Source: Escherichia coli
Lineage (GTDB): Bacteria; Pseudomonadota; Gammaproteobacteria; Enterobacterales; Enterobacteriaceae
Assembly: GCF_003334765.1 (NCBI RefSeq)
Contig: NZ_QOWT01000040.1
Length of the DNA: 31,100 nucleotides
Reading direction: 5' to 3' (one strand)
The notes under the pieces are model-generated. The model was not told where the DNA came from and made no database searches. It saw nothing but the letters and a program-made list of their open reading frames with translations. Below are positions 1-30,909 of the stretch, in pieces. A program made the translations under genes and the position numbers. Numbering within the stretch: the stretch's first letter is position 1; each line of letters starts with the position of its first letter.

Positions 1-74
1 AAATCGGCTCAAACATGAAGAAATGAAATGACTGAGTCAGCCGAGAAGTATTTCCCCGCTTATTCGCACCTTCC
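1..74 (+). mobile_element. IS5 right-end fragment; the element body lies left of the window
   Basis: Bases 1-74 match, from memory, the last ~75 bp of IS5. The reverse complement of 59-74 is the terminal inverted repeat GGAAGGTGCGAATAAG. The next 4 bp, TTAG (75-78), fit the IS5 YTAR target/duplication site. Not verified by alignment. Confidence 0.85.
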
Positions 75-130
75 TTAGTCGCGCGCTGAATGGAATTTAC
101 GCCTCTTTGGAAACATCTGATTGGGGAATA

Positions 131-487
131 ATGAAGTTATTTGAGGATTTAGCATATAGAAATTATAAGTCAAGCGCATGGTCCGCTATGCTAAGAAATA
201 AATTAAGATTGAGAATGGACGATAAGCTTGATGAAAAGATAATTTCAATAATTAATGAGAAAGAGCTTGGTAAAAAGTTTTATAGAATTGACAGAGATCG
301 TTTGTTATCGTTAATGTTAGATTATAATATTGATATACCAATTAATCTTAATAATATAATTTACCTTTGTAATTATTTTTTCATAAAATCTACGGAGCTT
401 CAGGATATAGCCCCTGCTTTAATAATGAAAAAGCTTACAGATGCTGATGAAAAATTCAATAAAAATACTATTTTAGCATCTAAATAA
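131..487 (+). CDS. hypothetical protein, 118 aa from ATG 131 (TTG 107 gives the 126-aa ORF)
   Basis: Very AT-rich ORF with no motif I recognise. The same frame stays open leftwards across the IS5 junction to a stop at 29-31, so this may be the 3' part of a gene split by IS5. A hairpin follows the stop codon. Confidence 0.45.
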   Translation: MKLFEDLAYRNYKSSAWSAMLRNKLRLRMDDKLDEKIISIINEKELGKKFYRIDRDRLLSLMLDYNIDIPINLNNIIYLCNYFFIKSTELQDIAPALIMKKLTDADEKFNKNTILASK

Positions 488-504
488 TAACTATCTCCGG
501 CTAT

Positions 505-534
505 TAAGTAGGCCTTGTATTTTAGGCCTACTTA
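505..534. repeat. 11-bp inverted repeat hairpin after the small ORF; possible terminator without a U-tract
   Basis: TAAGTAGGCCT (505-515) and AGGCCTACTTA (524-534) are perfect reverse complements with an 8-nt loop. Neither strand has a clear T-run after the hairpin. Confidence 0.4.
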
Positions 535-866
535 AAAAGTTTCATTATGTGAAGTGATGATGATAGCAAATCTGATATCTTTATGGTTGGATGCGAGAAA
601 ATATTTTTATCCCGACACAACAACTGGTAATGATAGAAAATTTAAACCCAAAAATGCTACAGTAGCCTCAGCTCACAAACGGAGTATAAAGTGGCGGTTA
701 CTCTTTAGTGGGAATACTGTAGATAGTTGATAAACTGGGCTGGATTTTCTTTTCTAACCGAAGGGAAGAAAAGCAAGGGGAACCCAAAGAAACAAGCGCA
801 GCGGCTTCGTAGGGTTAGCCCTTGCTTCTTTTATAATTGGCATTATTCATTCAAGAACAATAGGAT

Positions 867-886
867 CTTCGCTTGTACAAGCGAAG
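867..886. repeat. perfect 20-bp palindrome CTTCGCTTGT|ACAAGCGAAG
   Basis: The reverse complement of 867-876 equals 877-886 exactly. It lies in an ORF-poor AT-rich stretch downstream of the ParB-like genes. Half-site fragments ACAAGCG (792-798) and CTTCG (805-809) occur about 70 bp upstream. Confidence 0.8.
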
Positions 887-1539
887 CTATAATAAAAAAT
901 CAATTAATTATTTTAAAAGTATTAAGCAAGAGCCTATTGACATTCGTAAAATAAAAGTTATTTTTAATGTATGCCATAAATAAAAAGTTTTATGTCATAT
1001 GTATCCTGCACTATGTGCAGTTAATGTGCCACTTGTCCCATATATGGGAATATTGGAAAGGTTACTTTGTTTTGAAGTAGCCTTTCGTCCTTCAATATTC
1101 ACGATTACTTATTGCTATTACCAAGTCCAGTCGAATCGAAGAACATCTTTTATCTGAAACGACTCCTAATACCAGGTTGAAGCCACAATATCTCTCGCAT
1201 AAGTAGACCAAAGAAAAATTATGATATTAACTATGTGATTTTTTTTAGTGTTAAGTTGAATAATTATATACTGGAGAGTTTTCTGTACACTACCAATTGC
1301 TGGTTCATCTGTTCTGCCGCTGATGTTTCTGACTAATCTCCCGGTGACACAGAACTGTCCCTCTCTACCAGCCTTTATTCGACTCAATGTCCGGCTGCTG
1401 ATACGCAGTTATCCCTTCGTATCAATGACTGACTCTTAAACGCAATGCTTTGGTTGCTGGCGTATCTGACAGCTTCTTCGGCGTGAAGGTCGTTGTGTAA
1501 GTATACTTCTTGGTTTATTTAGGCTATATAAAACCATGA

Positions 1540-2436
1540 CTATGACTGGCTGTTTTCAGTAAGAGTCTTATCATCCAAAGAATTTATTCTAGAAATTCTT
1601 TTTAACTCATTAAGATAATCAACCTCGTTTTCTAAGAACCAATGAAGAACTTTAGAGTTGCCAAGTAATTTATTAATATATGACTGGATTATAACGAATT
1701 TCAACATATCTGAACCATACTCGGTTTGAAGTTTTTTCGTTTCTTCCGAAGTTGTTGCCATTTCTTGTTCCAGACGAAGTATGGTTTTTTTTATGTCCTT
1801 TTTATAGGGAGTGTTTTTCCCTTTATTTACTATCATCGATGACGGTGTTGCATCCAAGATGCTCATTGCAAATTTTTTACTATAATTATCAAAATTAATC
1901 ATTGTACCGACTGCTTCAATTTGACGAATTGGCTTCATTTTCCTCAAAACGTCAAATGTAGCCTTAGGTATAGGTTTATCAGAAAGTTTCGCAATTACAC
2001 TTGGATCTATGCCGTTCATCACATTAGCTTTATCTTTTATGGCATCAACAGATATGCCCAAAGCAGCACTAAGTTTTTCAATTGATACTTTTGCCAGAGA
2101 CTTAATTATCATTCTATGTTCTTCAACTACATTTATATGATTCACTTGTTTGTTAGGAGTGAAAGCATCATCTATGCTCGAAAGTATACATGGAGCTTTT
2201 TCTATATCTAAGTCTTTTAAAGCCTCAACCCTTAAATGGCCATCAAGTATCTTAGTGACATCTTTATCTTTGTCATAGAATACTATTATTGGTTCAATAA
2301 TACCCAAGCTTTCGATAGAGGTAACTATTTGATGATATTTATGGCTTCGCTTTACGTTTTCTAATAATTCCTTAGATGGAATTAACTTATTAGTTTCCAG
2401 GTAAATAAAATTTTTGCCAAAACGTATCTGAATCAT
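1540..2436 (-). CDS. ParB/Srx N-terminal domain protein B (298 aa), third gene of the triad
   Basis: ParB-like motifs: SIESLGIIEPIIV (compare GLLQPIxV), ILDGHLRVEAL (a D-G-x-x-R patch at residues 65-69) and an HTH-like IEKLSAALGISVDAIKDKANVM. Its ATG shares ATGA (2433-2436) with the upstream stop. An AGAGGT Shine-Dalgarno sits 6 nt upstream. Confidence 0.8.
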   Translation of the reverse strand: MIQIRFGKNFIYLETNKLIPSKELLENVKRSHKYHQIVTSIESLGIIEPIIVFYDKDKDVTKILDGHLRVEALKDLDIEKAPCILSSIDDAFTPNKQVNHINVVEEHRMIIKSLAKVSIEKLSAALGISVDAIKDKANVMNGIDPSVIAKLSDKPIPKATFDVLRKMKPIRQIEAVGTMINFDNYSKKFAMSILDATPSSMIVNKGKNTPYKKDIKKTILRLEQEMATTSEETKKLQTEYGSDMLKFVIIQSYINKLLGNSKVLHWFLENEVDYLNELKRISRINSLDDKTLTENSQS

Positions 2437-3329
2437 TTTGATACCTCTTTGTTTACTGGGTTTAATATCTGAGATGGTAGTTCTGAAAGATTCTCTTGTT
2501 CAAGTATATTTTGAAAGCTTTTATTCATCATTATGATGTTAAAAATCTCATTTATTATTAGTAGATTGGTTTTTATAAATTTCGAGTTGTTATAAACAGA
2601 TTTATGTTCAGCGATACTATTTTCATAAAGCTCAATCAACTCCTCTGCAGTCATCCTTTTTGATGGTTTGTGATAATAAAATCCGGCTGCTTTTGCACCT
2701 TTATTCCCAACTGTTCTTTGATTTAGAATGTATTTTATCTTTATAATGTCCCGACTTTTTATTAATTTTTTATCATATGCTTCGGTAAGAATATCTTGTG
2801 CTTCCTCAGTTTCACATCTTGCAAATTGCACTGCGAGATACAGAGGCAAATTACCCCGTTCGACTGCTGAGAGAAGTTTATGCTCTCCCTTATCAAGAAG
2901 CATATTAATACTGCTCACCCAGTTCGATGAATATCCAGTAATCTCACTTATTTCGGAGTCTGAAAGTCCTCTGATTTTCATGTCTTTAATCACCTGTAAT
3001 AACTCATTAGAACGTGGTCTTCTCCTTGCAATGTTTTCAACTAAACTCATAACGTAAGCATCTTCTTCTGATACATCTCTTATAATTGCTGGAATAATAG
3101 TTTCACCTAATGCAACAAGAGCCTCTATTCTCCCTTGACCACAAATTAAAGCATATTTGAAATCGTCTTCATCAATAGCTCTTACGCTTATAGGCTTGCT
3201 TAATCCTCTTTTTTTTATGCTTTCCTTTATTTCTTCATGCACTACCTTATTTCTTGTTCGTGGGTTAAGAAATTTTATTTTTGCAATCTCAATTTGAATT
3301 ATTGGGAATTCATTTTTTTCAGGCAGCAT
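2433..3329 (-). CDS. ParB-like N-terminal + HTH domain protein A (298 aa), second gene of the triad
   Basis: Motifs: FLNPRTRN, GLSKPISVRAI and ICGQGRIEAL (a reduced GxxR arginine patch at residues 64-67). SLVENIARRRPRSNELLQVIKDMKIRGLSDSEISEITGYSSNWVSSINMLL parallels the ParB ENLQR...HTH segment. The C-terminal ~120 aa is unrecognised. A GAGGGA Shine-Dalgarno sits 5 nt before ATG 3327-3329. The start overlaps the recombinase stop by 11 nt. Confidence 0.8.
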   Translation of the reverse strand: MLPEKNEFPIIQIEIAKIKFLNPRTRNKVVHEEIKESIKKRGLSKPISVRAIDEDDFKYALICGQGRIEALVALGETIIPAIIRDVSEEDAYVMSLVENIARRRPRSNELLQVIKDMKIRGLSDSEISEITGYSSNWVSSINMLLDKGEHKLLSAVERGNLPLYLAVQFARCETEEAQDILTEAYDKKLIKSRDIIKIKYILNQRTVGNKGAKAAGFYYHKPSKRMTAEELIELYENSIAEHKSVYNNSKFIKTNLLIINEIFNIIMMNKSFQNILEQENLSELPSQILNPVNKEVSK

Positions 3330-4875
3330 ATAGTTCCCTCACTTTCATGCGAGTAATAATTTGTAGAAATTTATCAAGATTATCAAATCTATAGAGATCT
3401 AACCGAATGTTGTTTGTTTCCATCATACACATTTTACTATATTCGTTTTCAATCTTTGGTATGATATAAAAATCAAGAGGTGAAATATTTTGTGAATTCA
3501 TTCGTATAACAATTGTTATGTCTGCTTTCTGTGAGTTATCAAACCGGACTTTCCATCTAAGTTTACCTGATTTCATATGTATGCATTTAGTAACAAGGAC
3601 GGAAATTAAAAACTCATCATTGATGTAAAGCATTGGGTAATATTTATACTCGTCTATATGACAGTTACTTTTTAATATTTCGCCCTTAAAATCCTCAATT
3701 ATCTCTGAGTAAAATGATCTTAGTGCTTCATTTATTTGGAGATAGCTGTAATCATGTTCTGGCTTATAACCAATCAAAGTATATGCTCTTAAAAGACCAC
3801 CAAATCGGGTTCTATAAACAGAAGATGAAGGGCCTGTATCATCTTCATCAATGATAAAGCCTGATAGTTTTCCATTAGATTCTAATTTTTCTTTTAGCTT
3901 TTCTAATAGATCTTCATTAGTCAAATGAATGGATCGGAGCTGAATTATTTCTTGAGCTTTATTATATTTTTTCTTTGAAATAATTGGTTTATATGCCTTG
4001 TCACATCTAATCCATTCATGTTTGGGGTTTTTTACAAGCTTACTTTTTAGTTTAGATGAGGTTTTGTTATATATGTTGTTTCCAATATATTTTTCATTTG
4101 TCAAAATTTGATGTATTTTTGCACGAGTCCATGATGTTCCATTTTCTGCAGGTATGCTCTGTTCATTTAATCTCTCAGCAATAATGAATTCTGGGACGTT
4201 ACTATCTATAAAGAGATCATAGATTCTATTTACAATTTTTATTTCATTTTTTGGTCCCGGAATTAATATTACCCTATCTGTTTGAATACTCTTTCTTTTG
4301 CGGAAATTCAATATTTCTTTAGCTATGCCATTTTCGTCTACTAAAAGACGTCTCAGCCCATAACCAGCCATACCGCCTTGATGATAACCAAGCTTTATTA
4401 AATTTACTTGCCCTATAAATACCTTTTCAGATAGATTCCTGCTGTGATATGCAGCACTTGATCTTTTTATATTCAGTATAACAGAGGACTCTAAAGGGAA
4501 ATCTTTAGTGGGTATAGGTTCGGAACAATATATAAGATCTACACCATTTCTTTCAAATAGAAAGGAATAATATGCAGCTTCATCACTATTTTGAAAACGA
4601 CCAAAACGGCTCACATCATAAAATAATACAGCCTGTATATCTATTTTCTTTTGTTCTACATCGCTAAGTAACTGCTGCAAAGAATGCCTGCCTACGATAC
4701 TGACTCCGCTCTTACCTGCATCATCGTAGGTATAAGCGATTTCCATATTGTTCTTTTCAGCATAATCTTTGATATATTCAGACTGATTATGTAAAGAATA
4801 TTGCTGATGGTCGGTAGACATCCTCAAGTACTGTGCGACCCTAACTCTATGATTTTTTTCATTTCCGCTAGCCAT
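3319..4875 (-). CDS. large serine recombinase family protein, 518 aa from ATG 4875 (ORF opens at TTG 4881)
   Basis: Resolvase catalytic-domain motifs: YLRMSTDHQ (the nucleophile Ser context), DAGKSG and VSRFGR. Recombinase-domain motif: WTRAKIHQILTNEKYIGN. No CxxC pair occurs anywhere in the protein, so no zinc ribbon is apparent. A GAGG sits 8 nt before ATG 4873-4875. Confidence 0.85.
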   Translation of the reverse strand: MASGNEKNHRVRVAQYLRMSTDHQQYSLHNQSEYIKDYAEKNNMEIAYTYDDAGKSGVSIVGRHSLQQLLSDVEQKKIDIQAVLFYDVSRFGRFQNSDEAAYYSFLFERNGVDLIYCSEPIPTKDFPLESSVILNIKRSSAAYHSRNLSEKVFIGQVNLIKLGYHQGGMAGYGLRRLLVDENGIAKEILNFRKRKSIQTDRVILIPGPKNEIKIVNRIYDLFIDSNVPEFIIAERLNEQSIPAENGTSWTRAKIHQILTNEKYIGNNIYNKTSSKLKSKLVKNPKHEWIRCDKAYKPIISKKKYNKAQEIIQLRSIHLTNEDLLEKLKEKLESNGKLSGFIIDEDDTGPSSSVYRTRFGGLLRAYTLIGYKPEHDYSYLQINEALRSFYSEIIEDFKGEILKSNCHIDEYKYYPMLYINDEFLISVLVTKCIHMKSGKLRWKVRFDNSQKADITIVIRMNSQNISPLDFYIIPKIENEYSKMCMMETNNIRLDLYRFDNLDKFLQIITRMKVRELYAA

Positions 4876-5157
4876 GCACAAAACCTCATGGATGATTCAA
4901 TACAATGTAGAGGATAAAATTGATCAAATTTTAACCGAATTCAACTGTTTTATCATTGATTAGAGCGAATTTGGTAGTTCTTCGAGGTGTATGATAATCG
5001 AGAAGAGATGTGAATTATTTAGCTGATATGACCGACAGCTTTCGTTATGTGGCCTCAAGGTACCCATTTGTAAATGGCTATGCTTAGTCCACATAGGTTA
5101 ATGGTGTGATCATTAATTCTTCAAATAAATCAAGATAGTTAACCCATCATGGAAGAG

Positions 5158-6387
5158 TTATGCGGCAATAACTTTGTATTTTTGAGACGAAACATAGTCA
5201 CTCCACCATTGCATGAGAACCACACGTTCTGTGAGATACTCTGCACGATTGTAGGCTGCAATTATTTCATCTTTTTTCGAGTGGGCAAGGGCGGCTTCTA
5301 AGACATCAGTTCTAAACTTGCCACACTCCTCAGCCGCCGTTCTAGCGATTGATCGCATACCATGAGCTACAAGCTCACCTCCGAAGCCCATACGGATTAT
5401 AGCCGCATTAGCTGTTTGTTCATGCATGTGATTGAGTGGAGCTTTGATACTGGGAAAAACCCACTCTCTATGCCCGCTGATGGCTTTCATTGAATCCAAG
5501 ACTCGCAAAGATTCTTTGCTCAGTGGAACTTTGTGAGGCTTCTTCATTTTCATAAACTCCGCCGGGATGTTCCACATGCTGGTTTCTATATCAATATCTG
5601 ACCATCTTGTGCGAACAGCTTCACCAGGGCGAACCCATGTGAGAAGTTGCCACTCAATCAGTAGCCTTGTTTCTAAACGGATAGAAGCATTGTTTAGAGC
5701 AACCAGGAAGCGGGGGAGTTCGGAAGGGGGTAATGCTGGCATATTCTGTTTTTTTGGCTTGCTGAACCGTTGCCCCAGGTTGTCAGCCGGATTGAATTCT
5801 ATGAGTTCTTCTGTTGCTGCATAGCGGAAAATTTCATTCAGGCGGGATATGACGCGGCGAAGTGTTTCAAGGACACCTCGTTTTTCTATGGGGTCTAAAT
5901 GCTGTTTAAGCATTTTAGGGCGAATCTCCTTAATGGGGGTATCACCCAACGTTGGAAAGATATTTCTCTCTAGGCTTCGCCAGATGTCGTTAGCATGATC
6001 CTGGGAGATGCCTGACGTTTTGACTTTCTCATCAAGCCACTTCTTGGCTACTGCTTGAAATGTATGTTCCGTTGCATCCTTAAGGGCATTGGCTTTGTGG
6101 GTGTTATGAATTTGTGGGTCTATACCATTTGCAAGCAACGACAAGTACTCATCACGTAAAGCTCGTGCCTTCGCAAGTGTAAGGTGAGGATAGGTTCCTA
6201 AGCTCACCTTAGTTCGCTTTTTGGTCACAGGCACTGCATATCTGAAATACCAATTTTTCTTTCCTCCCTTCGCTAAGGGGGCGATTCGCAGGAGCAAACC
6301 ATCGCCGTCAAAAAGGTTAACCTCTTTCTCGGCAGGTTTGGTGCTTTTGATTTCAGTGTCAGTGAGCTTCTTAGCGATTTTTGCCAT
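5158..6387 (-). CDS. int: P4/IntA-family tyrosine integrase, 409 aa from ATG 6387
   Basis: The N-terminus MAKIAKKLTDTEIKSTKP...FDGDGLLLRI is typical of P4-type integrases. Catalytic-region motifs: TWVRPGEA, HGMRSIART, LAH and AAYNRAEY. It lies directly next to the 3' end of ssrA. The 457-aa ORF extension to 6531 is rejected because it runs through the ssrA terminator hairpin, and a GAGGG Shine-Dalgarno precedes ATG 6385-6387. Confidence 0.9.
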   Translation of the reverse strand: MAKIAKKLTDTEIKSTKPAEKEVNLFDGDGLLLRIAPLAKGGKKNWYFRYAVPVTKKRTKVSLGTYPHLTLAKARALRDEYLSLLANGIDPQIHNTHKANALKDATEHTFQAVAKKWLDEKVKTSGISQDHANDIWRSLERNIFPTLGDTPIKEIRPKMLKQHLDPIEKRGVLETLRRVISRLNEIFRYAATEELIEFNPADNLGQRFSKPKKQNMPALPPSELPRFLVALNNASIRLETRLLIEWQLLTWVRPGEAVRTRWSDIDIETSMWNIPAEFMKMKKPHKVPLSKESLRVLDSMKAISGHREWVFPSIKAPLNHMHEQTANAAIIRMGFGGELVAHGMRSIARTAAEECGKFRTDVLEAALAHSKKDEIIAAYNRAEYLTERVVLMQWWSDYVSSQKYKVIAA

Positions 6388-6483
6388 GTTTGGGACCCTC
6401 ATGTTTTGGACCCTTTGTGTTGGGTCCCAAAAAGGGTGCCATAACGAGTAGATTCTAGCAATTCTCGGTAGACTACTATAGAC

Positions 6484-6520
6484 GTAAAAAAGCCCGCAAG
6501 GCTGGTTCCATGCGGGCTTG
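6484..6520 (-). terminator. rho-independent terminator downstream of ssrA, on the island side
   Basis: 9-bp stem AAGCCCGCA (6490-6498) / TGCGGGCTT (6511-6519). On the minus strand the hairpin is followed by TTTTTT. Confidence 0.7.
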
Positions 6521-6553
6521 ATAGACTTCACTGAACTTCAATATATCAAAAAT

Positions 6554-6916
6554 TGGTGGAGCTGGCGGGAGTTGAACCCGCGTCCGAAATTCCTACATCC
6601 TCGGTACTACATGCTTAGTCAGTCTTTACATTCGCTTGCCAGCTGCGGACGGACACGCCACTAACAAACTAGCCTGATTAAGTTTTAACGCTTCAACCCC
6701 AGGCAGGGCTTCCACGCGATCTCTTTTGGGTTTGACCTCTCTTGATCCCCGTCCTAAGAGCGGAGGCTAGGGAGAGAGGGCTCTAAGCAGGTTATTAAGC
6801 TGCTAAAGCGTAGTTTTCGTCGTTTGCGACTATTTTTTGCGGCTTTTTACGAGGCCAACCGCCCCTCGGCATGCACCTTGGGTTTCGCAAATCCCGTCGA
6901 ATCCAGAATCAGCCCC
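6554..6916 (-). ncRNA. ssrA: tmRNA (SsrA), 363 nt
   Basis: The reverse complement reads GGGGCTGATTCTGGATTCGACGGGATTTGCG ... GGGTTCAACTCCCGCCAGCTCCACCA. The tag reading frame GCAAACGACGAAAACTACGCTTTAGCAGCTTAA (ANDENYALAA) is at 6795-6827. Confidence 0.97.
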
Positions 6917-10799: not shown

Positions 10800-11678
10800 T
10801 TAGAATAATTTTTTTGACCAGCCGAGCTTGGTGCTTAATGTGTTGAAATAACTGTAATCTTTCGGATGAATCAGATTCAGATGGTAATCACAGCGACGAA
10901 TCAGGACATCTTCACCTTCCTGAATCGGCAGTGCTATCTGGCTGTCGCAACTGATTTCCAGGTCGTTACGGCGATGCGAAAAACGCAGACGGATCGTGCT
11001 GCTGCTGTTTATGACCAGTGGTCGTGCTGACAACGTATGCGGGAACATGGGCACCAGGGTAATCGCATCCAGAGAGGGGGTCAGAATAGGACCGCCTGCA
11101 GAGAGGGAATAGGCGGTGGAGCCTGTTGGCGTCGAAATAATTAGTCCATCAGATCGCTGAGAAAACGCAAAGATCTCGTCGATATACACTTCGAACTCAA
11201 TCATATGCGCCACTTTGCCTGGATGAAGCACCACTTCATTTATCGCGGTGCTGATGCGTTTCTGGCAATCTTGCTGACAGACTTGCGCTTCCAGCAAAAA
11301 ACGTTTCTCGCTGATGTAGTGGCCTTCCAGCACATCGGCTAACTGTTGCTGGGCGTTATCGGGGTCAAGGTCAGTCAGGAAACCCAGGTTGCCACGGTTG
11401 ATTCCAATAACTTTAATATCGTAACGGGCGAGTGTGCGTGCCGCGCCCAGCATATTACCGTCGCCACCAACGACTACCGCGAGATCAGCTAGTTGCCCAA
11501 TCTCCGCGAGCGTGCCAGTTTTCACATTCTTCAGTTGCAGTTCGTGAGCGATTTGTTGCTCAACGATGACCTCGTAACCTTTTGTGCACAGCCAGCGGTA
11601 GAGCATTTCATGTGTTGTCAGTGCAGTGGGGTGCCGTGGGTGTCCCACAATGCCAATACACTTGAAATGATTATTCAT
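10800..11678 (-). CDS. nadK: NAD kinase
   Basis: 292 aa. GGDGN motif ([14 protein letters not shown]). N-terminus [17 protein letters not shown] recognised. Confidence 0.95.
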
Positions 11679-12448: not shown

Positions 12449-13711
12449 TTACTCCGCCACACTCTCGCGCAGCGGTTTCACAGGAAAAACTTTTACCTGC
12501 TTAATCATATTGTCCTGTACGTCGAGAATATCGATATCGTACTCGCCAATACGCACGCGGGTGCCTGCGACAGGGATCTCTTCCAGTGCCTCAAGAATGA
12601 CGCCATTAACCGTGCGGGCATCATCTTCCGGTAGATGCCAGTTAAAGGCTTTGTTGATTTCCCGCACGTTGGCGGTGCCATCGATAATCACCGAACCGTC
12701 GTTTTGCGGCGTGACCTCTTCGGCAAGTGTTGGCGACATCGACGTAGTGAAATCGCCGACAATCTCTTCCAGAATATCTTCAACCGTCACCAGCCCCTGA
12801 ATGTCTCCATACTCGTTGACGACCAGGCCGACTTTCTTTTTGTTGCGCTGAAACTTTACCAACTGCGTGCTGAGCGGCGTACCTTCCGGCACAAAATAGA
12901 TCTCGTCCGCGGCGCGCAGCATGGTTTCTTTGGTGAACTCTTTTTTCTCCGACATCAACCGCCAGGCTTCACGTACTCGCAGCATACTGATGGCGTCGTC
13001 CAGCGAATCACGGTAGAGCACGATGCGCCCGTGAGGTGAGTGGGAGAGTTGGCGCAGAATCGATTTCCAGTCATCGTTGATATCAATACCGATAATTTCA
13101 CTGCGCGGCACCATGATGTCATCAACGGTCATTTTTTCCAGATCGAGCACCGACAGCAGCATATCCTGATTGCGACGGGAAATTTGTGAGCGTGATTCGT
13201 GCACGATAGTGCGCAACTCTTCTTTGCTCAAAGAGCCGCTAACCACGATATCGGTTTTGATACCCATCATGCGCATCAGCATACGGGTGATAGCATTCAG
13301 CAACCAGACCAGCGGCATCATCAAAATTTGCAGCGGAGCCAGCAGAAAACTACTCGGATAAGCGACTTTTTCCGGGTACAGCGCGGCAATGGTTTTCGGC
13401 AATACCTCAGCAAATACCAGTACGACAAAAGTCAGCACACCAGTCGCAATTGCCACGCCCGCATCGCCGTACAAACGCATCCCAACAATAGTGCCGAGCG
13501 CGGAGGCAAGAATATTGACCAGGTTATTGCCGATTAACACCAGGCTTATCAGGCGGTCTGGCTTACGCAGCAATTTTTCGACGCGTTTGGCCGAGCGATT
13601 ACCCTGTTTCGCCATATGTCGCAGACGATAGCGGTTGAGGGTCATCATTCCGGTTTCGGACCCGGAAAAATAGGCTGAAATGACCACCATGATGATCAGA
13701 ATAATGATCAA
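12449..13711 (-). CDS. yfjD: CNNM/CorB-type inner membrane protein YfjD (DUF21-CBS-CorC_HlyC)
   Basis: The 420-aa ORF is recognised from K-12 synteny and sequence. The N-terminal boundary is uncertain. TTG 13709-13711 is the ORF-track start. The frame stays open upstream, and a GGAG lies 6 nt before CTG 13733-13735. ATG 13688-13690 is the first internal ATG. Confidence 0.85.
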   Translation of the reverse strand: MIIILIIMVVISAYFSGSETGMMTLNRYRLRHMAKQGNRSAKRVEKLLRKPDRLISLVLIGNNLVNILASALGTIVGMRLYGDAGVAIATGVLTFVVLVFAEVLPKTIAALYPEKVAYPSSFLLAPLQILMMPLVWLLNAITRMLMRMMGIKTDIVVSGSLSKEELRTIVHESRSQISRRNQDMLLSVLDLEKMTVDDIMVPRSEIIGIDINDDWKSILRQLSHSPHGRIVLYRDSLDDAISMLRVREAWRLMSEKKEFTKETMLRAADEIYFVPEGTPLSTQLVKFQRNKKKVGLVVNEYGDIQGLVTVEDILEEIVGDFTTSMSPTLAEEVTPQNDGSVIIDGTANVREINKAFNWHLPEDDARTVNGVILEALEEIPVAGTRVRIGEYDIDILDVQDNMIKQVKVFPVKPLRESVAE

Positions 13712-18899: not shown

Positions 18900-20126
18900 T
18901 TATCTCACCAGCTTTTCGGCACGCTGGTGTTTGGCCTGATACATATTGTGATCGGCAAGCTCTTGTAATTTTTCCGCAGAGGCGTGCTCAATGGTCATCG
19001 CGTAACCAATGCTTAATGTCATGGTGGTCTGATGGCCATTATGAAGATCAAACGGGAGATTAAAGATTTGTGTCAGTGCTGAACATATCTGCTGCACTTC
19101 AGATTCCGACTGTACATCATAGAGCACCATAGCGAATTCATCGCCGCCCAGGCGGTATGCTTTATGTCGCAGCCCGCCAAATTCAGCTAACCGTTTTGCG
19201 ATTTCAATCAAGACTCTATCGCCCGTCGCATGACCCCAGGTATCATTGATGTATTTGAAATTATCGCCATCAAGAAATAGTAACGCCGACGTTTTTCGGG
19301 CATCGGAATTGTTCATCAACGTGTTGATGCCGCTACGAAACGCTGCGCGGTTAGCCAGCCCGGTTAATGGGTCATGTAGCGCGGTACGTAGAAGCTGCGC
19401 ATTTTTAGCCTGTAAACGAAGCTGCCACTCTTCCATTTCATCCAGCAGACTGTTGAAGTCGAGAGCGAAGCGGTGAAACTCAGCGATACGTTCTTCCGAA
19501 ACTCGTCGGGAAAAATTGCGGTTGGAACGCACATCATGTACGACATCGGTGATATTTTTCAGCGCTTCTACCAGGCCATTGTGCAAATGGCGGGTGAGGG
19601 TAATTGCGATGCCTGATGCTAGCAGAATACAACCGGTCAGTACGGCGAGCGAAAACCAGATAAAATGGCTGATTGAACTGTCGCGAGCGGTTAAGCGTAC
19701 TTCGCCAATGGTTTCACCATTGTGACGAATCGGCTGAATGATGGGGGCAGGGAAGAGCCAGTGGCTTATGAAATTACTGAAAGTATCGCCTGGATCCTTA
19801 CGGGTGTAATGCCAGGATGCCAGAATATTTTGCTGCTTATCACGTACTTCTGCAGTTGAAAATTGCCCTTGCTGGCCCAGCGCTGCCAGTGTTTCAGTTG
19901 CTGCAGGGCCATCGGCAAAAACGACAGCTGCTTCCAGACTGTAAGTCATTGTTGCTGCTGTCAGTGCCAGGTTTTTTTGCGCGTACTGTTTCAGGGTCAG
20001 CACCGAGGTCACGGAAAGCAGCAACCAGATCAGCATCATAGTGATAAATATGCTGGTCATACTGATGTTGCGTAATGCTCTTTTAAACGTGGGGCGCTTA
20101 TTAAGAGAATTATCGTTATCCATCAT
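18900..20126 (-). CDS. dgcN: membrane diguanylate cyclase DgcN (YfiN)
   Basis: 408 aa with two TM segments, a HAMP-like region and a GGDEF motif in [10 protein letters not shown]. Confidence 0.92.
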
Positions 20127-20634
20127 TTTTCTTCCGTGCGAGCATTAAGACATCCGGGTTGACCTTTACACCGCTACGCGATAAGGCATCCAGGTTTACG
20201 GCAAATCTGACGTCATTATTGTGGATGATCAGACAAAAGGCGCTACCAATAATGCACTCGGTATTTTGTTCGGCAATTAATAATAACGCCTTTGACGGAT
20301 ATTGTTCGGTTAATTCCATCTGGAATGTCGGTGACTCGTTGCCAAAATAAAAACCATTGCAGCCTGAAATCATCGCCTCTTGTTGAGTGTGAATGATGAC
20401 AGGCAGATAAGGCAAAGATGTCGCGGCATTCTCTTGTAGGGCGGTACTAAAACGTGAAGATGAAAAGATACATAACTTTGGTGGCCCTGATAGCGCAGGC
20501 CAGCGGGTGTAACTGACAATACCGGAAACCATCATACGCACGTTTTTCGCAACGTCAGAAGGCTCCTGAGCGAGTATTGGTGCTCCCGTCAGCAGGAGAA
20601 TCAGAAGTAAGAACAGTCGGTGAGAAAAACGCAT
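20116..20634 (-). CDS. yfiR: periplasmic DgcN repressor YfiR
   Basis: 172 aa. Signal peptide [24 protein letters not shown]. The stop overlaps the dgcN start by 11 nt. Confidence 0.9.
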
Positions 20635-20783
20635 TCAGGGATCCCCACCATCTTCGCTCGAAATGCATCGATATTTTTTCAGAATGCTCATTAAAATATC
20701 ATTTTTTCATGCGACCGTCATCAATGTGAGAAATAAAACACAATGAGTAAAATCTTATGTTTAATTTATTTGTGGGGTTTTAA

Positions 20784-21149
20784 TTAATTTAATCGTATTG
20801 TGCTGGCATTTTCATCAGCCCCTTTTTGCCATACTTCATGCAGTTGGCTGGCATTTTCAACATTGTTGCAGCTGGCAGGAAAGCTTTTACCGGAAAGTCC
20901 TCGGGCATAAGTAAAATCGGTCTGGCAAGTTTTCTTTTGTCCTTCGGCATATCCTTTAAGGTATAGACCGCGATCCGCCTGTGAATCGCTAAATGCATCG
21001 TCATCTTTTATGGCGCTGCCCGATATCGCATCTTCCATACCGACATCATACCAGTCGGTGCTGGTCAAGGTTGGCGCGTGAGTATAAGGATCAATCTGAC
21101 ATCCGCTAACCAGTAAAGCCAACAAGGGGGCGATAAACTTTTTCATCAT
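20784..21149 (-). CDS. yfiL: lipoprotein YfiL (121 aa from ATG 21149)
   Basis: MMKKFIAPLLALLVSGCQ carries a lipobox. The ORF-track start at 21188 adds 13 aa that precede the signal peptide. Confidence 0.8.
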   Translation of the reverse strand: MMKKFIAPLLALLVSGCQIDPYTHAPTLTSTDWYDVGMEDAISGSAIKDDDAFSDSQADRGLYLKGYAEGQKKTCQTDFTYARGLSGKSFPASCNNVENASQLHEVWQKGADENASTIRLN

Positions 21150-21246
21150 TTCTTTCTCCTTTTTCAAAGCATAGCGGATTGTTTTCAAAGGGAGTGTAAA
21201 TTTATATATACAGAGGTAAGGGTTGAAAGCGCGACTAAATTGCCTG

Positions 21247-21287
21247 TGTAAATAAAAATGTACGAAATATGGATTGAAAACTTTACT
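21247..21287 (+). promoter_or_regulatory. two TyrR boxes in the aroF promoter
   Basis: TGTAAATAAAAATGTACG (21247-21264) and TGGATTGAAAACTTTACT (21270-21287) resemble the TyrR box TGTAAA-N6-TTTACA. Confidence 0.65.
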
Positions 21288-21358
21288 TTATGTGTTATCG
21301 TTACGTCATCCTCGCTGAGGATCAACTATCGCAAACGAGCATAAACAGGATCGCCATC

Positions 21359-22429
21359 ATGCAAAAAGACGCGCTGAATAACGTACATATTACCGACGAA
21401 CAGGTTTTAATGACTCCGGAACAACTGAAGGCCGCTTTTCCATTGAGCCTGCAACAAGAAGCCCAGATTGCTGACTCGCGTAAAAGCATTTCAGATATTA
21501 TCGCCGGGCGCGATCCTCGTCTGCTGGTAGTATGTGGTCCTTGTTCCATTCATGATCCGGAAACTGCTCTGGAATATGCTCGTCGATTTAAAGCCCTTGC
21601 CGCAGAGGTCAGCGATAGCCTCTATCTGGTAATGCGCGTCTATTTTGAAAAACCCCGTACCACTGTCGGCTGGAAAGGGTTAATTAACGATCCCCATATG
21701 GATGGCTCTTTTGATGTAGAAGCCGGGCTGCAGATCGCGCGTAAATTGCTGCTTGAGCTGGTGAATATGGGACTGCCACTGGCGACGGAAGCGTTAGATC
21801 CGAATAGCCCGCAATACCTGGGCGATCTGTTTAGCTGGTCAGCAATTGGTGCTCGTACAACGGAATCGCAAACTCACCGTGAAATGGCCTCCGGGCTTTC
21901 CATGCCGGTTGGTTTTAAAAACGGCACCGACGGCAGTCTGGCAACAGCAATTAACGCTATGCGCGCCGCCGCCCAGCCGCACCGTTTTGTTGGCATTAAC
22001 CAGGCAGGGCAGGTTGCGTTGCTACAAACTCAGGGGAATCCGGACGGCCATGTGATCCTGCGCGGTGGTAAAGCGCCGAACTATAGCCCTGCGGATGTTG
22101 CGCAATGTGAAAAAGAGATGGAACAGGCGGGACTGCGCCCGTCTCTGATGGTAGATTGCAGCCACGGTAATTCCAATAAAGATTATCGCCGTCAGCCTGC
22201 GGTGGCAGAATCCGTGGTTGCTCAAATCAAAGATGGCAATCGCTCAATTATTGGTCTGATGATCGAAAGTAATATCCACGAGGGCAATCAGTCTTCCGAG
22301 CAACCGCGCAGTGAAATGAAATACGGTGTATCCGTAACCGATGCCTGCATTAGCTGGGAAATGACCGATGCCTTGCTGCGTGAAATTCATCAGGATCTGA
22401 ACGGGCAGCTGACGGCTCGCGTGGCTTAA
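21359..22429 (+). CDS. aroF: DAHP synthase, Tyr-sensitive (AroF), 356 aa
   Basis: [42 protein letters not shown]..., recognised. The ORF-track start at 21290 is an upstream extension. Confidence 0.95.
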
Positions 22430-23603: not shown

Positions 23604-24764
23604 TCAGGTTGGATCAACAGGCACTACGTTCTCACTTGGGTAACAGCCCAATACCTTCATTGAACGGGTGATTTCCCCTAACTCTTTCAATGCTTTTTGC
23701 ATTTCCGCTGATTCAAGATTGGCCTGAATATCCAGATAGAACATCTCTTCCCATGGATTACCGTGAATCGGGCGTGATTCCAGACGGGTCATAATCAGAT
23801 TGTGGTTGCGCAGTACCAGCAACGCTTCAACCAGCGCACCGGCTTGTTGCCCGGTCGCCATTAACAACGTGGTTTTCGCCGGAACCTGATCAGACACGTT
23901 AATGGCTTTACGCGCCAACACCACAAATCGGGTGAAGTTTTGTCGCTGATTTGCTTCAATACGCTCCAGTACCTGCAAACCGTACAAAGTGCCGCCAGCT
24001 TCGCTTCCCAACGCAGCAACATGCGGTGATTTTGCCTGTGCAACCTTTTCCATTGCCGCAGACGTACTTTCGGTATATTCAATCTTCCAGTGCGGATAAC
24101 GATTAAGGAATTTGCTGCATTGCTGGAATGGCTGCGGATGGCTGTAGACCGTATTGATGGTGGATAAATCAGTAGTGCCGGAGACCAACAAACAATGGTC
24201 GATAGTTAACGTCATCTCGCCAACAATCGACAAGCTGGTATGTTGCAGCAGATCGTAAACGTCGTTTATGGCACCGGAGCTGGTATTTTCAATCGGTACG
24301 ACGGCATAGTCGGCCTGGCCGGTTTCCACCTGATTAAAAATATCGGCAAATTTGGCGCAGCCACTTTCAATGAATTGCTCAAAGTGACGGGCAGCATACT
24401 GGCGCGCCGCAAGATGGGAATAAGAACCTTTGGGGCCGAGAAAAGCGATGCGTGCTGAGTGCGGATTAATTTTATTGAGATGTTGTTGGAGCAAAGCCTG
24501 CTGAGTTAATACGGAATCTTCAATGATGAGCTGGAACAGGCGAGTAATGTAATGGGCGTCCAGATGGTGCGCTTTACCGAGCGTAATTAATCTTTCCAGC
24601 AAATCGCGTTCACGATCAATATCACGTACCGGGCGATGCGAGAGCAGTTTGGCTTTTCCCACCTCGACGGCCAGTTCGCGCCGTTCTGCCAGTAACGCTA
24701 ATAATTTTTCATCCAGCGCGCTGATTTTCTCTCGCAGCGCCAGTAACGGGTTTTCCGATGTCAT
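23604..24764 (-). CDS. pheA: chorismate mutase / prephenate dehydratase PheA
   Basis: 386 aa beginning [36 protein letters not shown]..., recognised. Confidence 0.96.
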
Positions 24765-24786
24765 AGTGTTGCCTTTTTGTTATCAA

Positions 24787-24816
24787 TAAAAAAGGCCCCC
24801 CGATTTGGGAGGCCTT
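24787..24816 (-). terminator. pheA attenuator terminator
   Basis: The minus strand reads AAGGCCTCCCAAATCGGGGGGCCTTTTTT, between pheL and pheA. Confidence 0.85.
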
Positions 24817-24862
24817 ATTGTTCGTCTTCGCATTCTGTTTCACACGACGAAACGCCTCCCAT

Positions 24863-24910
24863 TCAGGGGAAGGTAAAAAAGAATGCGAAGAAAAACGGTA
24901 TGTGTTTCAT
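24863..24910 (-). CDS. pheL: pheA leader peptide PheL (15 aa, [15 protein letters not shown])
   Basis: The minus strand reads ATGAAACACATACCGTTTTTCTTCGCATTCTTTTTTACCTTCCCCTGA, with 7 Phe codons out of 15. Confidence 0.95.
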
Positions 24911-24964
24911 GTTTGTTTCCTTAAGTGACTTTAGTACAGTACCCGTACTGTTTTCACGCTGTCA

Positions 24965-24990
24965 ACAAAAAACGCGCCCGAAGGCGCGTT
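24965..24990 (-). terminator. raiA terminator
   Basis: Stem AACGCGCC / GGCGCGTT with a CGAA loop. On the minus strand it is followed by TTTTTT. Confidence 0.8.
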
Positions 24991-25013
24991 GGCGATACAC
25001 TCAATATAAAGGA

Positions 25014-25409
<396 letters not shown>

Positions 25410-25578
25410 TCAAAATGTGTGATGAAAATCTCATAATTTTGTCACTTTTTGTCAACGAATCTTTTTTGTGAGAAATCGCAGGAAGAGATGTTTTTTTACT
25501 TGAGGAATATCTCAAAGCGAGCCATATTTGATGAGATCGATAGCGACTAAATCGCTTCAGTTTCACAACTGACAGAAT

Positions 25579-28206: not shown

Positions 28207-28267
28207 CCTAAAGAATCAAGACGATCCGGTACGCGTGATTTTCTTTTCACATTAATCTGGTCAATAA

Positions 28268-28298
28268 CCTTGAATAATTGAGGGATGACCTCATTTAA
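28268..28298 (+). promoter_or_regulatory. sigma32 heat-shock promoter of clpB
   Basis: CCTTGAA (28268-28274), 14 nt, CCTCATTTA (28289-28297). This resembles the sigma32 consensus. Confidence 0.65.
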
Positions 28299-28335
28299 TC
28301 TCCAGTAGCAACTTTGATCCGTTATGGGAGGAGTT

Positions 28336-30909
28336 ATGCGTCTGGATCGTCTTACTAATAAATTCCAGCTTGCTCTTGCCGATGCCCAATCACTTGCACT
28401 CGGGCACGACAACCAATTTATCGAACCACTTCATTTAATGAGCGCCCTGCTGAATCAGGAAGGGGGTTCGGTTAGTCCTTTATTAACATCCGCTGGCATA
28501 AATGCTGGCCAGTTGCGCACAGATATCAATCAGGCATTAAATCGTTTACCGCAGGTTGAAGGTACTGGTGGTGATGTCCAGCCATCACAGGATCTGGTGC
28601 GCGTTCTTAATCTTTGCGACAAGCTGGCGCAAAAACGTGGTGATAACTTTATCTCGTCAGAACTGTTCGTTCTGGCGGCACTTGAGTCTCGCGGCACGCT
28701 GGCCGACATCCTGAAAGCAGCAGGGGCGACCACCGCCAACATTACTCAAGCGATTGAACAAATGCGTGGAGGTGAAAGCGTGAACGATCAAGGTGCTGAA
28801 GACCAACGTCAGGCTTTGAAAAAATATACCATCGACCTTACCGAACGAGCCGAACAGGGCAAACTCGATCCGGTGATTGGTCGTGATGAAGAAATTCGCC
28901 GTACCATTCAGGTGCTGCAACGTCGTACTAAAAATAACCCGGTACTGATTGGTGAACCCGGCGTCGGTAAAACTGCCATCGTTGAAGGTCTGGCGCAGCG
29001 TATTATCAACGGCGAAGTGCCGGAAGGGTTGAAAGGCCGCCGGGTACTGGCGCTGGATATGGGCGCGCTGGTGGCTGGGGCGAAATATCGCGGTGAGTTT
29101 GAAGAACGTTTAAAAGGCGTGCTTAACGATCTTGCCAAACAGGAAGGCAACGTCATCCTATTTATCGACGAATTACATACCATGGTCGGCGCGGGTAAAG
29201 CCGATGGCGCAATGGACGCCGGAAACATGCTGAAACCGGCGCTGGCGCGTGGTGAATTGCACTGCGTAGGTGCCACGACGCTTGACGAATATCGCCAGTA
29301 CATTGAAAAAGATGCTGCGCTGGAACGTCGTTTCCAGAAAGTGTTTGTTGCCGAGCCTTCTGTTGAAGATACCATTGCGATTCTGCGTGGCCTGAAAGAA
29401 CGTTACGAATTGCACCACCATGTGCAAATTACTGACCCGGCAATTGTTGCAGCGGCGACGTTGTCTCATCGCTACATTGCTGACCGTCAGCTGCCGGATA
29501 AAGCCATCGACCTGATCGATGAAGCAGCATCCAGCATTCGTATGCAGATTGACTCAAAACCAGAAGAACTCGACCGACTCGATCGTCGTATCATCCAGCT
29601 CAAACTGGAACAACAGGCGTTAATGAAAGAGTCTGATGAAGCCAGTAAAAAACGTCTGGATATGCTCAACGAAGAACTGAGCGACAAAGAACGTCAGTAC
29701 TCCGAGTTAGAAGAAGAGTGGAAAGCAGAGAAGGCATCGCTTTCTGGTACGCAGACCATTAAAGCGGAACTGGAACAGGCGAAAATCGCTATTGAACAGG
29801 CTCGCCGTGTGGGGGACCTGGCGCGGATGTCTGAACTGCAATACGGCAAAATCCCGGAACTGGAAAAGCAACTGGAAGCCGCAACGCAGCTCGAAGGCAA
29901 AACTATGCGTCTGTTGCGTAATAAAGTGACCGACGCCGAAATTGCTGAAGTGCTGGCGCGTTGGACGGGGATTCCGGTTTCTCGCATGATGGAAAGCGAG
30001 CGCGAAAAACTGCTGCGTATGGAGCAAGAACTGCACCATCGCGTAATTGGTCAGAACGAAGCGGTTGATGCGGTATCTAACGCTATTCGTCGTAGCCGTG
30101 CGGGGCTGGCGGATCCAAATCGCCCGATTGGTTCATTCCTGTTCCTCGGCCCAACTGGTGTGGGGAAAACAGAGCTTTGTAAGGCGCTGGCGAACTTTAT
30201 GTTTGATAGCGACGAGGCGATGGTCCGTATCGATATGTCCGAGTTTATGGAGAAACACTCGGTGTCTCGTTTGGTTGGTGCGCCTCCGGGATATGTCGGT
30301 TATGAAGAAGGTGGCTACCTGACCGAAGCGGTGCGTCGTCGTCCGTATTCCGTCATCCTGCTGGATGAAGTGGAAAAAGCGCATCCGGATGTCTTCAACA
30401 TTCTGTTGCAGGTACTGGATGATGGGCGTCTGACTGACGGGCAAGGGAGAACGGTCGACTTCCGTAATACGGTCGTCATTATGACCTCTAACCTCGGTTC
30501 CGATCTGATTCAGGAACGCTTCGGTGAACTGGATTATGCGCACATGAAAGAGCTGGTGCTCGGTGTGGTAAGCCATAACTTCCGTCCGGAATTCATTAAC
30601 CGTATCGATGAAGTGGTGGTCTTCCATCCGCTGGGTGAACAGCACATTGCCTCGATTGCGCAGATTCAGTTGAAACGTCTGTACAAACGTCTGGAAGAAC
30701 GTGGTTATGAAATCCACATTTCTGACGAGGCGCTGAAACTGCTGAGCGAGAACGGTTACGATCCGGTCTATGGTGCACGTCCTCTGAAACGTGCAATTCA
30801 GCAGCAGATCGAAAACCCGCTGGCACAGCAAATACTGTCTGGTGAATTGGTTCCGGGTAAAGTGATTCGCCTGGAAGTTAATGAAGACCGGATTGTCGCC
30901 GTCCAGTAA
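28336..30909 (+). CDS. clpB: disaggregase chaperone ClpB (857 aa)
   Basis: [34 protein letters not shown].... Two AAA+ modules with Walker A motifs GEPGVGKT and GPTGVGKT. The start is ATG 28336, preceded by GGAGGAG. The ORF-track start at 28324 adds 4 aa. Confidence 0.97.
28768..28782 (+). other. clpB: internal Shine-Dalgarno + GTG (Val149) start of the short ClpB isoform
   Basis: GGAGGTG (28768-28774), 5 nt, then GTG 28780-28782 at codon 149. The known dual-start arrangement of E. coli clpB is established knowledge recalled from memory. Confidence 0.7.

Follow-up and report, generated by a model that had tools for sequence, protein, structure and literature searches.

Serine integrases such as SPbeta SprA, Bxb1, PhiC31, TP901-1, TnpX and CcrA/B join a catalytic and a recombinase domain to a zinc ribbon and coiled coil, use attP/attB-type sites and are paired with a small directionality factor. 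ParABS systems, on the other hand, have ParA, parS repeats and a ParB protein with a canonical GERR motif, and the ParB-type cytidine triphosphate (CTP) switches comprise Spo0J/ParB, Noc, KorB, VirB and RepB of repABC plasmids. Here we describe three minus-strand genes from 31,100 nt of Escherichia coli DNA (contig NZ_QOWT01000040.1; hereafter the window), found in an island at the transfer-messenger RNA (tmRNA) gene ssrA and encoding a serine recombinase (SR) and two ParB-fold proteins (ParB-A and ParB-B). This triad is the E. coli copy of an ancient, widespread and unnamed cassette, not a local oddity. Our tentative reading is that of a site-specific recombination module, complete in itself and exchanged horizontally, in which ParB-type proteins act as accessory factors.

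By sequence as well as by structure, SR is closest to serine integrases, which are likewise encoded on mobile DNA, are similar in size (~520 aa) and share its catalytic and recombinase domains. However, SR has a helical linker and a PD-(D/E)xK-fold domain where the integrases have the zinc ribbon and coiled coil, it is accompanied by two ParB-fold proteins and not by a small directionality factor, and the only candidate counterparts of attP/attB-type sites are end repeats seen in Agrobacterium. Of the ParB switches, ParB-A shares the GxxR and ENxxR boxes and the helix-turn-helix (HTH), while ParB-B shares the HTH and C-terminal domain of RepB from repABC plasmids. The cassette differs from ParABS in having no ParA, in coupling two different ParB-fold proteins, in fixed order, to a recombinase, and in its location, which is for the most part in chromosomal islands and only seldom on plasmids. 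In ParB-B the GERR motif is replaced by DGHxR. A promoter-overlapping palindrome with one degenerate copy is a possible parS-like site in the E. coli cassette. Because the zinc ribbon/coiled coil and ParA are missing, the cassette is, in the strict sense, neither a classical serine integrase nor a ParABS member; its components belong to known superfamilies.

ParB/Srx folds are also used in the conflict proteins DndB, GmrSD/BrxU/SspE (DUF262 domain) and Osa. These and the ParB-methylases resemble the DGHxR-type N-domain of ParB-B, but the cassette has no fused or adjacent HNH/DUF1524 nuclease, methylase or Dnd genes, and the C-terminal half of ParB-B is RepB-like. Small serine recombinases mark antiphage genes (PLoS Biol 2026, PMC13552941) and SCCmec Ccr elements carry defences (PMC11470126). 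There, as here, a serine recombinase lies beside variable defence or toxin-antitoxin genes in mobile DNA, but those recombinases are small invertase-like proteins or Ccr pairs, an architecture different from that of SR, and no ParB partners are described for the small ones.

The recombinase and its two ParB partners

Pfam agrees with the domains that an earlier note had read from the sequence, a resolvase and a recombinase domain in SR and two ParB-type proteins of 298 aa each, and NCBIfam agrees with Pfam on the triad, with no equivalog-level model reached. Residues Y16, R18, S20, Q24, D87, R90, G92, R93 and E99 of SR are invariant in an alignment of 40 homologues, and its recombinase domain superposes on those of the SPbeta, Bxb1 and PhiC31 integrases. 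Foldseek alignments to serine integrases stop at ~325 residues, and neither a Zn_ribbon_recom (PF13408) match nor CxxC motifs were found in SR. Instead, the model of the C-terminal part matches PD-(D/E)xK nucleases, with the restriction-endonuclease-like alpha/beta core fold present. Its conserved residues are W441, D452, R458, D468 and P473, in which the acidic positions are kept while the canonical Lys is not evident, as far as a sequence alignment can tell. Small resolvases and invertases and IS607-type serine transposases have ~180-220 aa with only an HTH, C-terminal in the former two and N-terminal in IS607, whereas SR has 518 aa and a recombinase domain, and the NCBIfam models IS607, YneB and Mpi score it far under their cutoffs. 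Judging from the structural model, SR is an atypical large serine recombinase in which a nuclease-fold domain stands where the zinc ribbon and coiled coil would be.

By its sequence features ParB-A is a canonical ParB/Spo0J/Noc-like protein. It matches ParB_N (1.6e-13) and RepB (2.7e-07) in Pfam, exceeds the TIGR00180 cutoff (61.7 against 58.45 bits) and has phrog_3951 as a match (2e-82). Among solved structures it is closest to Spo0J (1vz0, 1e-11), in an alignment that extends through the HTH, and KorB and Noc are also among the PDB sequence matches. The family keeps all CTP-clamp boxes (NPR.R, GLK.PITV, Y.L.CG.GR.EA and S..EN.ARR in 63 homologues), followed by the HTH and a C-terminal region. 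ParB-B, on the other hand, consists of a divergent ParB/Srx-fold N-domain, a RepB-type HTH and a C-terminal domain, with a strong match to RepB (5.1e-24), a weak one to ParB_N (3.4e-05) and one to phrog_31451 (2e-206). Noc (7ol9, 7e-6) is its sole sequence relative in PDB, and 65 homologues conserve the signature LLDGH.R, TYN, QEH.MI. Thus, the CTP-binding GxxR and ENxxR motifs with an HTH, by which a ParB is recognized, are complete in ParB-A and present only in part in ParB-B (DGHxR). Identity between ParB-A and ParB-B is 30% across 63 aa (E=0.003) and, to judge from these signatures, the two are distinct functional types; the word paralogs, used in the earlier note, is right at the superfamily level and misleading below it, since they are two anciently separate, differently conserved families. 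All three triad genes are under purifying selection in E. coli, with ratios of nonsynonymous to synonymous divergence (dN/dS) of 0.05-0.31 (0.05-0.31 in ParB-A and 0.08-0.30 in ParB-B).

Conservation, gene order and mobility of the cassette

An exhaustive HMMER search with SR returned 1,351 cluster representatives at E <= 1e-30, many of them of ~520 aa and matching end to end. With the alignment of 40 SR homologues, 80 loci were fetched from reference genomes, where the SR homologues have ~45% identity. In 72 of these loci SR is followed by a ParB-A type and then a ParB-B type gene, all on one strand, each of the latter encoding ~298 aa, with overlaps of a few nt; a contig end or decay interrupts the cassette in the remaining 8. 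Drawn from at least six phyla, the loci include Alpha-, Beta- and Gammaproteobacteria, Acidobacteriota, Planctomycetota, Myxococcota and Bdellovibrionota, and a 7.5-kb human-gut virome contig has the same arrangement at 37% identity. Co-conservation elsewhere, which had been set beforehand as a test, is therefore found. Scanning IMG/VR with ParB-B gave only close enterobacterial relatives, from prophage-adjacent calls. From one locus to another, nucleotide homology extends past the triad by ~350-480 nt on the upstream side and by ~110-210 nt on the downstream side. Decayed or insertion sequence (IS)-hit copies exist, and a supposed insertion between ParB-B and a ParB-B fragment plus motif, in locus L096, was rejected as merely an IS element.

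In the window, the junctions are as the earlier note had described them: SR and ParB-A overlap by 11 nt (ATGCTGCCTGA, 3319-3329), ParB-A and ParB-B have an ATGA in common (2433-2436), and a GAGG-type Shine-Dalgarno lies 5-9 nt upstream of all three starts. The single expression unit proposed from these signals is borne out by the overlapping three-gene order of the 72 loci. The GC content had been estimated too low, at 28-30 percent; measured over 1501-5000 it is 0.31-0.34, against ~0.50 in the core. A ParA is absent from the window part of the island, and none is annotated in the complete island of an identical strain. No ParA was found in window 1-6553 or recurring as a neighbor in the 72 loci, with the limit that not every island open reading frame (ORF) was scanned with a ParA model, and none is annotated beside the unit on pAtC58 or p12939-PER.

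A small divergent, regulator-like fourth gene of 118-171 aa, with the motif ER.VK.W..G..GPSG..L and no Pfam match, is usual in copies from outside Enterobacteriaceae; it belongs to the cassette in 29-31 loci and is also present on pAtC58 and a Pseudomonas megaplasmid. The full unit then measures ~3.9 kb, and the cassette genes are all DNA-binding, recombination or regulatory. No remnant of this gene was found in E. coli by tblastn, and the 283-nt gap runs straight to the integrase. This control region contains a palindrome, AAAATTGATCAAATTTT (4916-4932), that coincides in part with the -10 of the highest-ranking promoter-like site (4956-4928); the scan gave no more such sites than shuffles did. 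The palindrome and its near-copies give 4 matches against 0.41 expected, one of them with 2 mismatches at 4103-4119, and the alphaproteobacterial copies have an analogous conserved palindrome, CCGGAAA-CGAC-TTTCCGG, at the equivalent position. It may be a putative operator or a parS-like loading site for ParB.

The clearest case of mobility comes from Agrobacterium (Table 1). The pAtC58 unit (L113:7602-11505, 3,904 bp) has a 96.9% identical counterpart in pAt1D1460, where the sequence on either side is unrelated. Other pAt plasmids have the left (AbiE) flank alone or the right (Fic) flank alone, and homology ends exactly at the cassette edges. These edges are 20-nt direct repeats, GCCTTGA-N6-TYGAACC, with exactly two copies in each occupied plasmid, at L113:7604-7623 and 11486-11505 in the case of pAtC58. 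At plasmid sites with no cassette there is a single copy, precisely where homology breaks off, just past the AbiEii or Fic stop codon; in cassette-free plasmids it lies 18-120 nt past Fic stop codons and 32 nt past that of AbiEii. The reverse complement of the repeat resembles the T-arm plus acceptor end of a tRNA or tmRNA (GGTTCAACTCC...). When two E. coli island types are compared, synonymous divergence (dS) is 0.03-0.05 in the triad against 0.16 in the adjacent integrase, that is, 3-5 times lower, and divergence climbs around 4800-5150, which points to an exchange of the triad independent of the integrase. The same triad segment is found at both ssrA and argW in Enterobacteriaceae. A Pseudomonas megaplasmid copy was considered as a further comparison, but only two identical records of it exist.

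A structured motif of ~115 nt was observed directly 3' of ParB-B in alphaproteobacterial cassettes (L076:9367-9535 and 36 other loci, alignment A5; also L095:13387-13555 and L096:17234-17401). It has 5 helices and 26 pairs, 10 of these with compensatory changes. Its cells are paired in 97.3% of cases against 26-42% with the partners slid; double-change cells number 53, compared with 12.8 in shuffles, and none of 500 shuffles reached the observed value. No Rfam family matches it, and its covariance model R1 has no match in the E. coli window, in L005 or in non-alphaproteobacterial loci, so it is clade-specific. It could be a 3'-untranslated-region RNA or a folded DNA site. A subgroup of alphaproteobacterial loci (L061, L076, L088, L100 and L108) shows an extra ~1 kb of homology, ~1 kb upstream of the recombinase, with an ORF of ~102 aa that looks like a ParE/RelE-type toxin by eye only.

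Table 1. Coordinates of the triad, the domains of SR, context genes and related features. Positions without a prefix refer to the window; L numbers are locus handles.
Feature	Position	Strand	Size	Evidence or remark
Serine recombinase (SR) gene	ORF 3319-4881, start ATG at 4875 in RefSeq relatives	-	518 aa	
ParB-A gene	2433-3329	-	298 aa	
ParB-B gene	1540-2436	-	298 aa	
Upstream control region of the triad	4876-5157	-		
Non-coding flank downstream of ParB-B	1196-1539			conserved, relatively GC-rich
SR resolvase catalytic domain	residues ~10-160			PF00239, 7.6e-22
SR recombinase domain	residues ~210-315			PF07508, 5.4e-22, residues 212-314
SR helical linker	residues ~300-400			
SR PD-(D/E)xK-fold beta domain	residues ~405-490			replaces zinc ribbon and coiled coil
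GCCTTGA-N6-TYGAACC, cassette-free plasmid	L117:2084-2103			
GCCTTGA-N6-TYGAACC, cassette-free plasmid	L117:5000-5019			
GCCTTGA-N6-TYGAACC, cassette-free plasmid	L116:7309-7327			
Fourth gene	L113:7641-8048	-		
Fourth gene	L114:7631-7984	-		
Fourth gene	L005:4258-4773	+		
P4-type tyrosine integrase of the ssrA island (context, outside the cassette)	5158-6387	-		Pfam Arm-DNA-bind_3, Phage_int_M, Phage_integrase; RefSeq annotation of identical strains
tmRNA gene ssrA (context)	6554-6916	-		ARAGORN; Rfam RF00023, 295.8 bits

Islands and carriers

The triad was found in 661 of 5,426 complete E. coli genomes (~12%), always chromosomal and single-copy, with none found on E. coli plasmids. The type of the window and that of E. 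coli B/BL21 are both at ssrA with the same integrase lineage, the tyrosine integrase lying between the tmRNA gene and the triad, directly upstream of the latter. The island att repeat is the ssrA 3' end (6553-6598). Farther from the integrase, one ssrA type has NACHT and RelA/SpoT genes and the other an IS1 truncation, with a relaxase module further out. In a strain identical to the window, the island runs past the window's left edge with RelA/SpoT-family and NACHT-domain genes. The earlier note had placed the triad in the cargo slot of the island, a doubtful label, since it is the genes past the triad that vary, the triad itself being conserved.

The third type, at ~95%, is at ssrA in strain H6 and more often in the tRNA-Arg(CCU) (argW) island, which has an unrelated integrase and a RloB/AAA_15 pair. 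The idea that the triad is always beside the ssrA integrase was rejected, since this commonest ~95% variant is in the argW island. Even there, a copy of the ssrA-integrase 3' end lies in direct orientation on each side of the triad (L003:11642-11885; L118:8175-8734 and 12452-12695, corresponding to window 5139-5716 and 5139-5382). The second copy, equivalent to 5139-5382, is just downstream of the triad as an in-frame 75-codon remnant with ~80% identity. The non-coding flank downstream of ParB-B accompanies the triad in two of the three types, according to blastn boundaries, and was found unannotated in 554 genomes, always with the triad; homology with the third type (H6/argW) stops at 1489-1492, the right edge of the shared segment. 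This flank gave no signal of RNA structure in E. coli (z = 0.32) and no significant similarity to an integrase remnant in the window (E = 0.054).

Some strains have rearranged islands. In E. coli B ATCC 11303 (L002:10905-11602) and BL21 derivatives, IS1 lies ~400 nt past ParB-B, and in the B lineages the rest of the island is gone while the integrase and an intact triad remain. Strain 300709 (L001:25200-41690) has a P2-like prophage remnant and an 'anti-phage dCTP deaminase' gene between ssrA and the island, delimited by the 46-nt duplication of the ssrA 3' end (window 6553-6598), which makes a tandem array at the tmRNA hotspot. The truncated copies of TUM9803 and EC571 were taken as candidate empty sites and rejected as IS1-mediated deletions.

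Outside E. coli, an acidobacterial genome (L052) contains a complete 11.2-kb island with 45-nt tRNA-Ala att repeats, in the order tyrosine integrase, small ORFs, cassette, MNT/HEPN pair and SRAP. In about one fifth of the loci, a tRNA gene lies no more than 10 kb away and points its 3' end towards the cassette. In Neorhodopirellula pilleata (L092:16726-21425), 11 tRNA genes were observed ~3.4 kb downstream of the cassette, all on the cassette-facing strand. The two sides of the cassette differ in their neighbors: those upstream are heterogeneous, with 105 Pfam families in 130 ORFs, and those downstream are rich in defence and toxin-antitoxin types.

Elsewhere in the window, a 126-aa ORF at 107-487(+), 'hypothetical' in RefSeq, has no Pfam, PADLOC, NCBIfam or PHROG match. 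Rfam finds the Phe leader (RF01859) at 24786-24911(-) and the small RNA RyfD (RF02768) at 28217-28355(+), both ordinary core-genome features, and GC dips to 0.42-0.45 at 20001-21500 and 24501-25500 within the ~0.50 core.

Proposed mechanism, alternatives and significance

Under the recombination module that we tentatively favor, SR, with its catalytic serine intact, would cut and rejoin short sites at the module edges, letting the module, perhaps with adjacent DNA, excise, insert or be deleted. As the zinc ribbon/coiled coil is missing, we propose that site recognition and directionality pass to the nuclease-fold C-terminal domain, which would serve in DNA binding, and to the two ParB proteins. 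The palindrome at the operon promoter would be the loading site of ParB-A, which, once closed into a CTP-gated clamp, would control its own operon and also tag or assemble the recombination complex; ParB-B would be the obligate partner or modulator of ParB-A. The E. coli copy appears to be largely fixed within the ssrA and argW islands, which it may now serve. A self-mobile element with ParB-like accessory factors, one of the readings of the earlier note, is the only one with direct support, from the relocated Agrobacterium copy and the E. coli dS, and its weak side is that precise ends were seen in one clade only.

Several observations weigh against it. A systematic search for terminal direct repeats in all loci gave only Agrobacterium above background, and the Agrobacterium repeat also adjoins Fic and AbiEii genes in plasmids without the cassette, so it could be the site of another recombination system. 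The triad is single-copy and has only two island contexts among the 5,426 complete E. coli genomes. Its move from ssrA to argW looks like homologous rather than site-specific recombination, since it is bracketed by the integrase-3' repeats of 244-560 nt. Furthermore, a tyrosine integrase with tRNA-end att repeats fully explains integration in the E. coli and L052 islands; SR as the island's integrase was rejected for both, because they have such an integrase with att repeats at tRNA/tmRNA ends.

A bolder form of the same idea, which we regard as improbable, would make the cassette a new class of serine-recombinase machine, in which a nuclease-fold DNA-binding domain and two CTP-switch/ParB-fold partners stand in for the zinc-ribbon/coiled-coil control module and the partners, loaded at a specific site, license or target recombination, the cassette being a compact mobile element or an integron-like platform for cargo shuffling. 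If the integron-like version were true, it would use short conserved sites located directly 3' of genes to insert itself together with adjacent defence or toxin-antitoxin modules, moving this cargo among islands and megaplasmids.

Exclusion of phages or plasmids, where the ParB-fold proteins would sense incoming DNA or load on it, SR with its nuclease-fold domain would break or scramble it and the small divergent gene would regulate the system, is in our view doubtful. It would fit the single-copy, patchy presence in 12% of E. coli and the PD-(D/E)xK fold within a recombinase, and ParB/Srx folds do serve in conflict systems. A divergent regulator with a coupled operon, as in the cassette, is a common defence layout. 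The downstream neighborhood is also rich in defence and toxin-antitoxin genes (ParB-methylases, DUF6361/DUF499/DUF3780, ResIII/SNF2, Cas1, RES, AAA_11/12+PLD and DEAD+MZB). The E. coli islands put NACHT, RelA/SpoT, Hxs+DUF6119 and RloB+AAA_15 beside the triad, AbiE and Fic lie on either side in pAtC58, and MNT/HEPN is in the acidobacterial island. However, such co-location is equally expected of any island backbone gene, and the lysine of (D/E)xK is not evident among the conserved residues of the nuclease fold. PADLOC 2.0 has no match as a system component for any triad protein: in PADLOC-DB 2.0 neither SR nor ParB-A matches, and ParB-B matches only the ParB-like N-terminus of a type II methylase model (3.8e-06). 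The three RefSeq accessions of the triad were not found in the parts of the DefensePredictor supplements that were available, and a survey of E. coli defence islands makes no mention of its proteins. Two candidate links were rejected: the 'REPB' system of DefensePredictor, which is PF10723, an unrelated family, and the ParB of a paper on Bdellovibrio defence, which is a plasmid gene. E. coli B and BL21, which are classical permissive hosts for T1-T7, have an intact triad; this is a weak argument against defence, as specificity may be narrow.

It is unlikely that the triad is a maintenance or resolution module for its carrier (island, integrative mobilisable element or megaplasmid), with SR resolving multimers or tandem arrays or controlling excision, and the ParB proteins organizing or silencing DNA in the manner of KorB, VirB or Noc, or holding the excised circle, without a dedicated ParA. 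Its position close to the integrase in tyrosine-integrase islands (E. coli, L052, L053 and L055) and its conservation while distal cargo varies would suit this role, and the same is true for the complete CTP-clamp boxes of ParB-A and its matches to KorB and Noc. The relaxase of the E. coli island makes it an integrative mobilisable element, which must survive as a circle. The cassette also occurs on large low-copy plasmids and chromids, but in only 59 of 72,556 plasmids, nearly all large. A tyrosine integrase was seen within 10 kb in only 6 of the 72 loci, with a home-made hidden Markov model of low sensitivity, and no ParA neighbor was seen among the related loci. In addition, the unit moves independently of any one carrier type, and multimer resolvases are normally small, whereas SR has recombinase and nuclease-fold domains.

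A DNA-inversion or phase-variation switch, in which SR flips a nearby segment with the ParB proteins as enhancer-like cofactors, is very improbable: serine recombinases do include invertases, JGI labels some homologues 'DNA invertase Pin-like' and an imperfect inverted pair exists at 4100-4119/4916-4935, but the pair arises because one of its arms is palindromic, the related loci have no segment flanked by conserved inverted repeats, and the 661 E. coli genomes show no alternative orientation, their matches being co-linear single pieces.

No already named defence, partition or transposition system was matched in PADLOC 2.0, NCBIfam or the searchable literature, where we found no description of the four-gene combination, the SR architecture, the pairing of two ParB types with a recombinase or the clade-specific 3' structured motif. 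The cassette is common, being present in ~12% of complete E. coli genomes (B/BL21 and ML35 among them) as well as in Agrobacterium C58 and Pseudomonas megaplasmids, and its current annotation as 'partition proteins' is misleading. Positioned where the island backbone meets variable defence cargo, it may throw light on how this cargo is exchanged. If the recombination module that we favor proves true, serine recombinases would have a second control route, in which nucleotide-gated ParB clamps and a nuclease-fold domain take the place of the coiled coil and directionality factor. Since serine integrases are genome-engineering tools, a family with a different targeting logic would be of applied interest. 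The ParB CTP switch would then extend beyond segregation and transcription to site-specific recombination.

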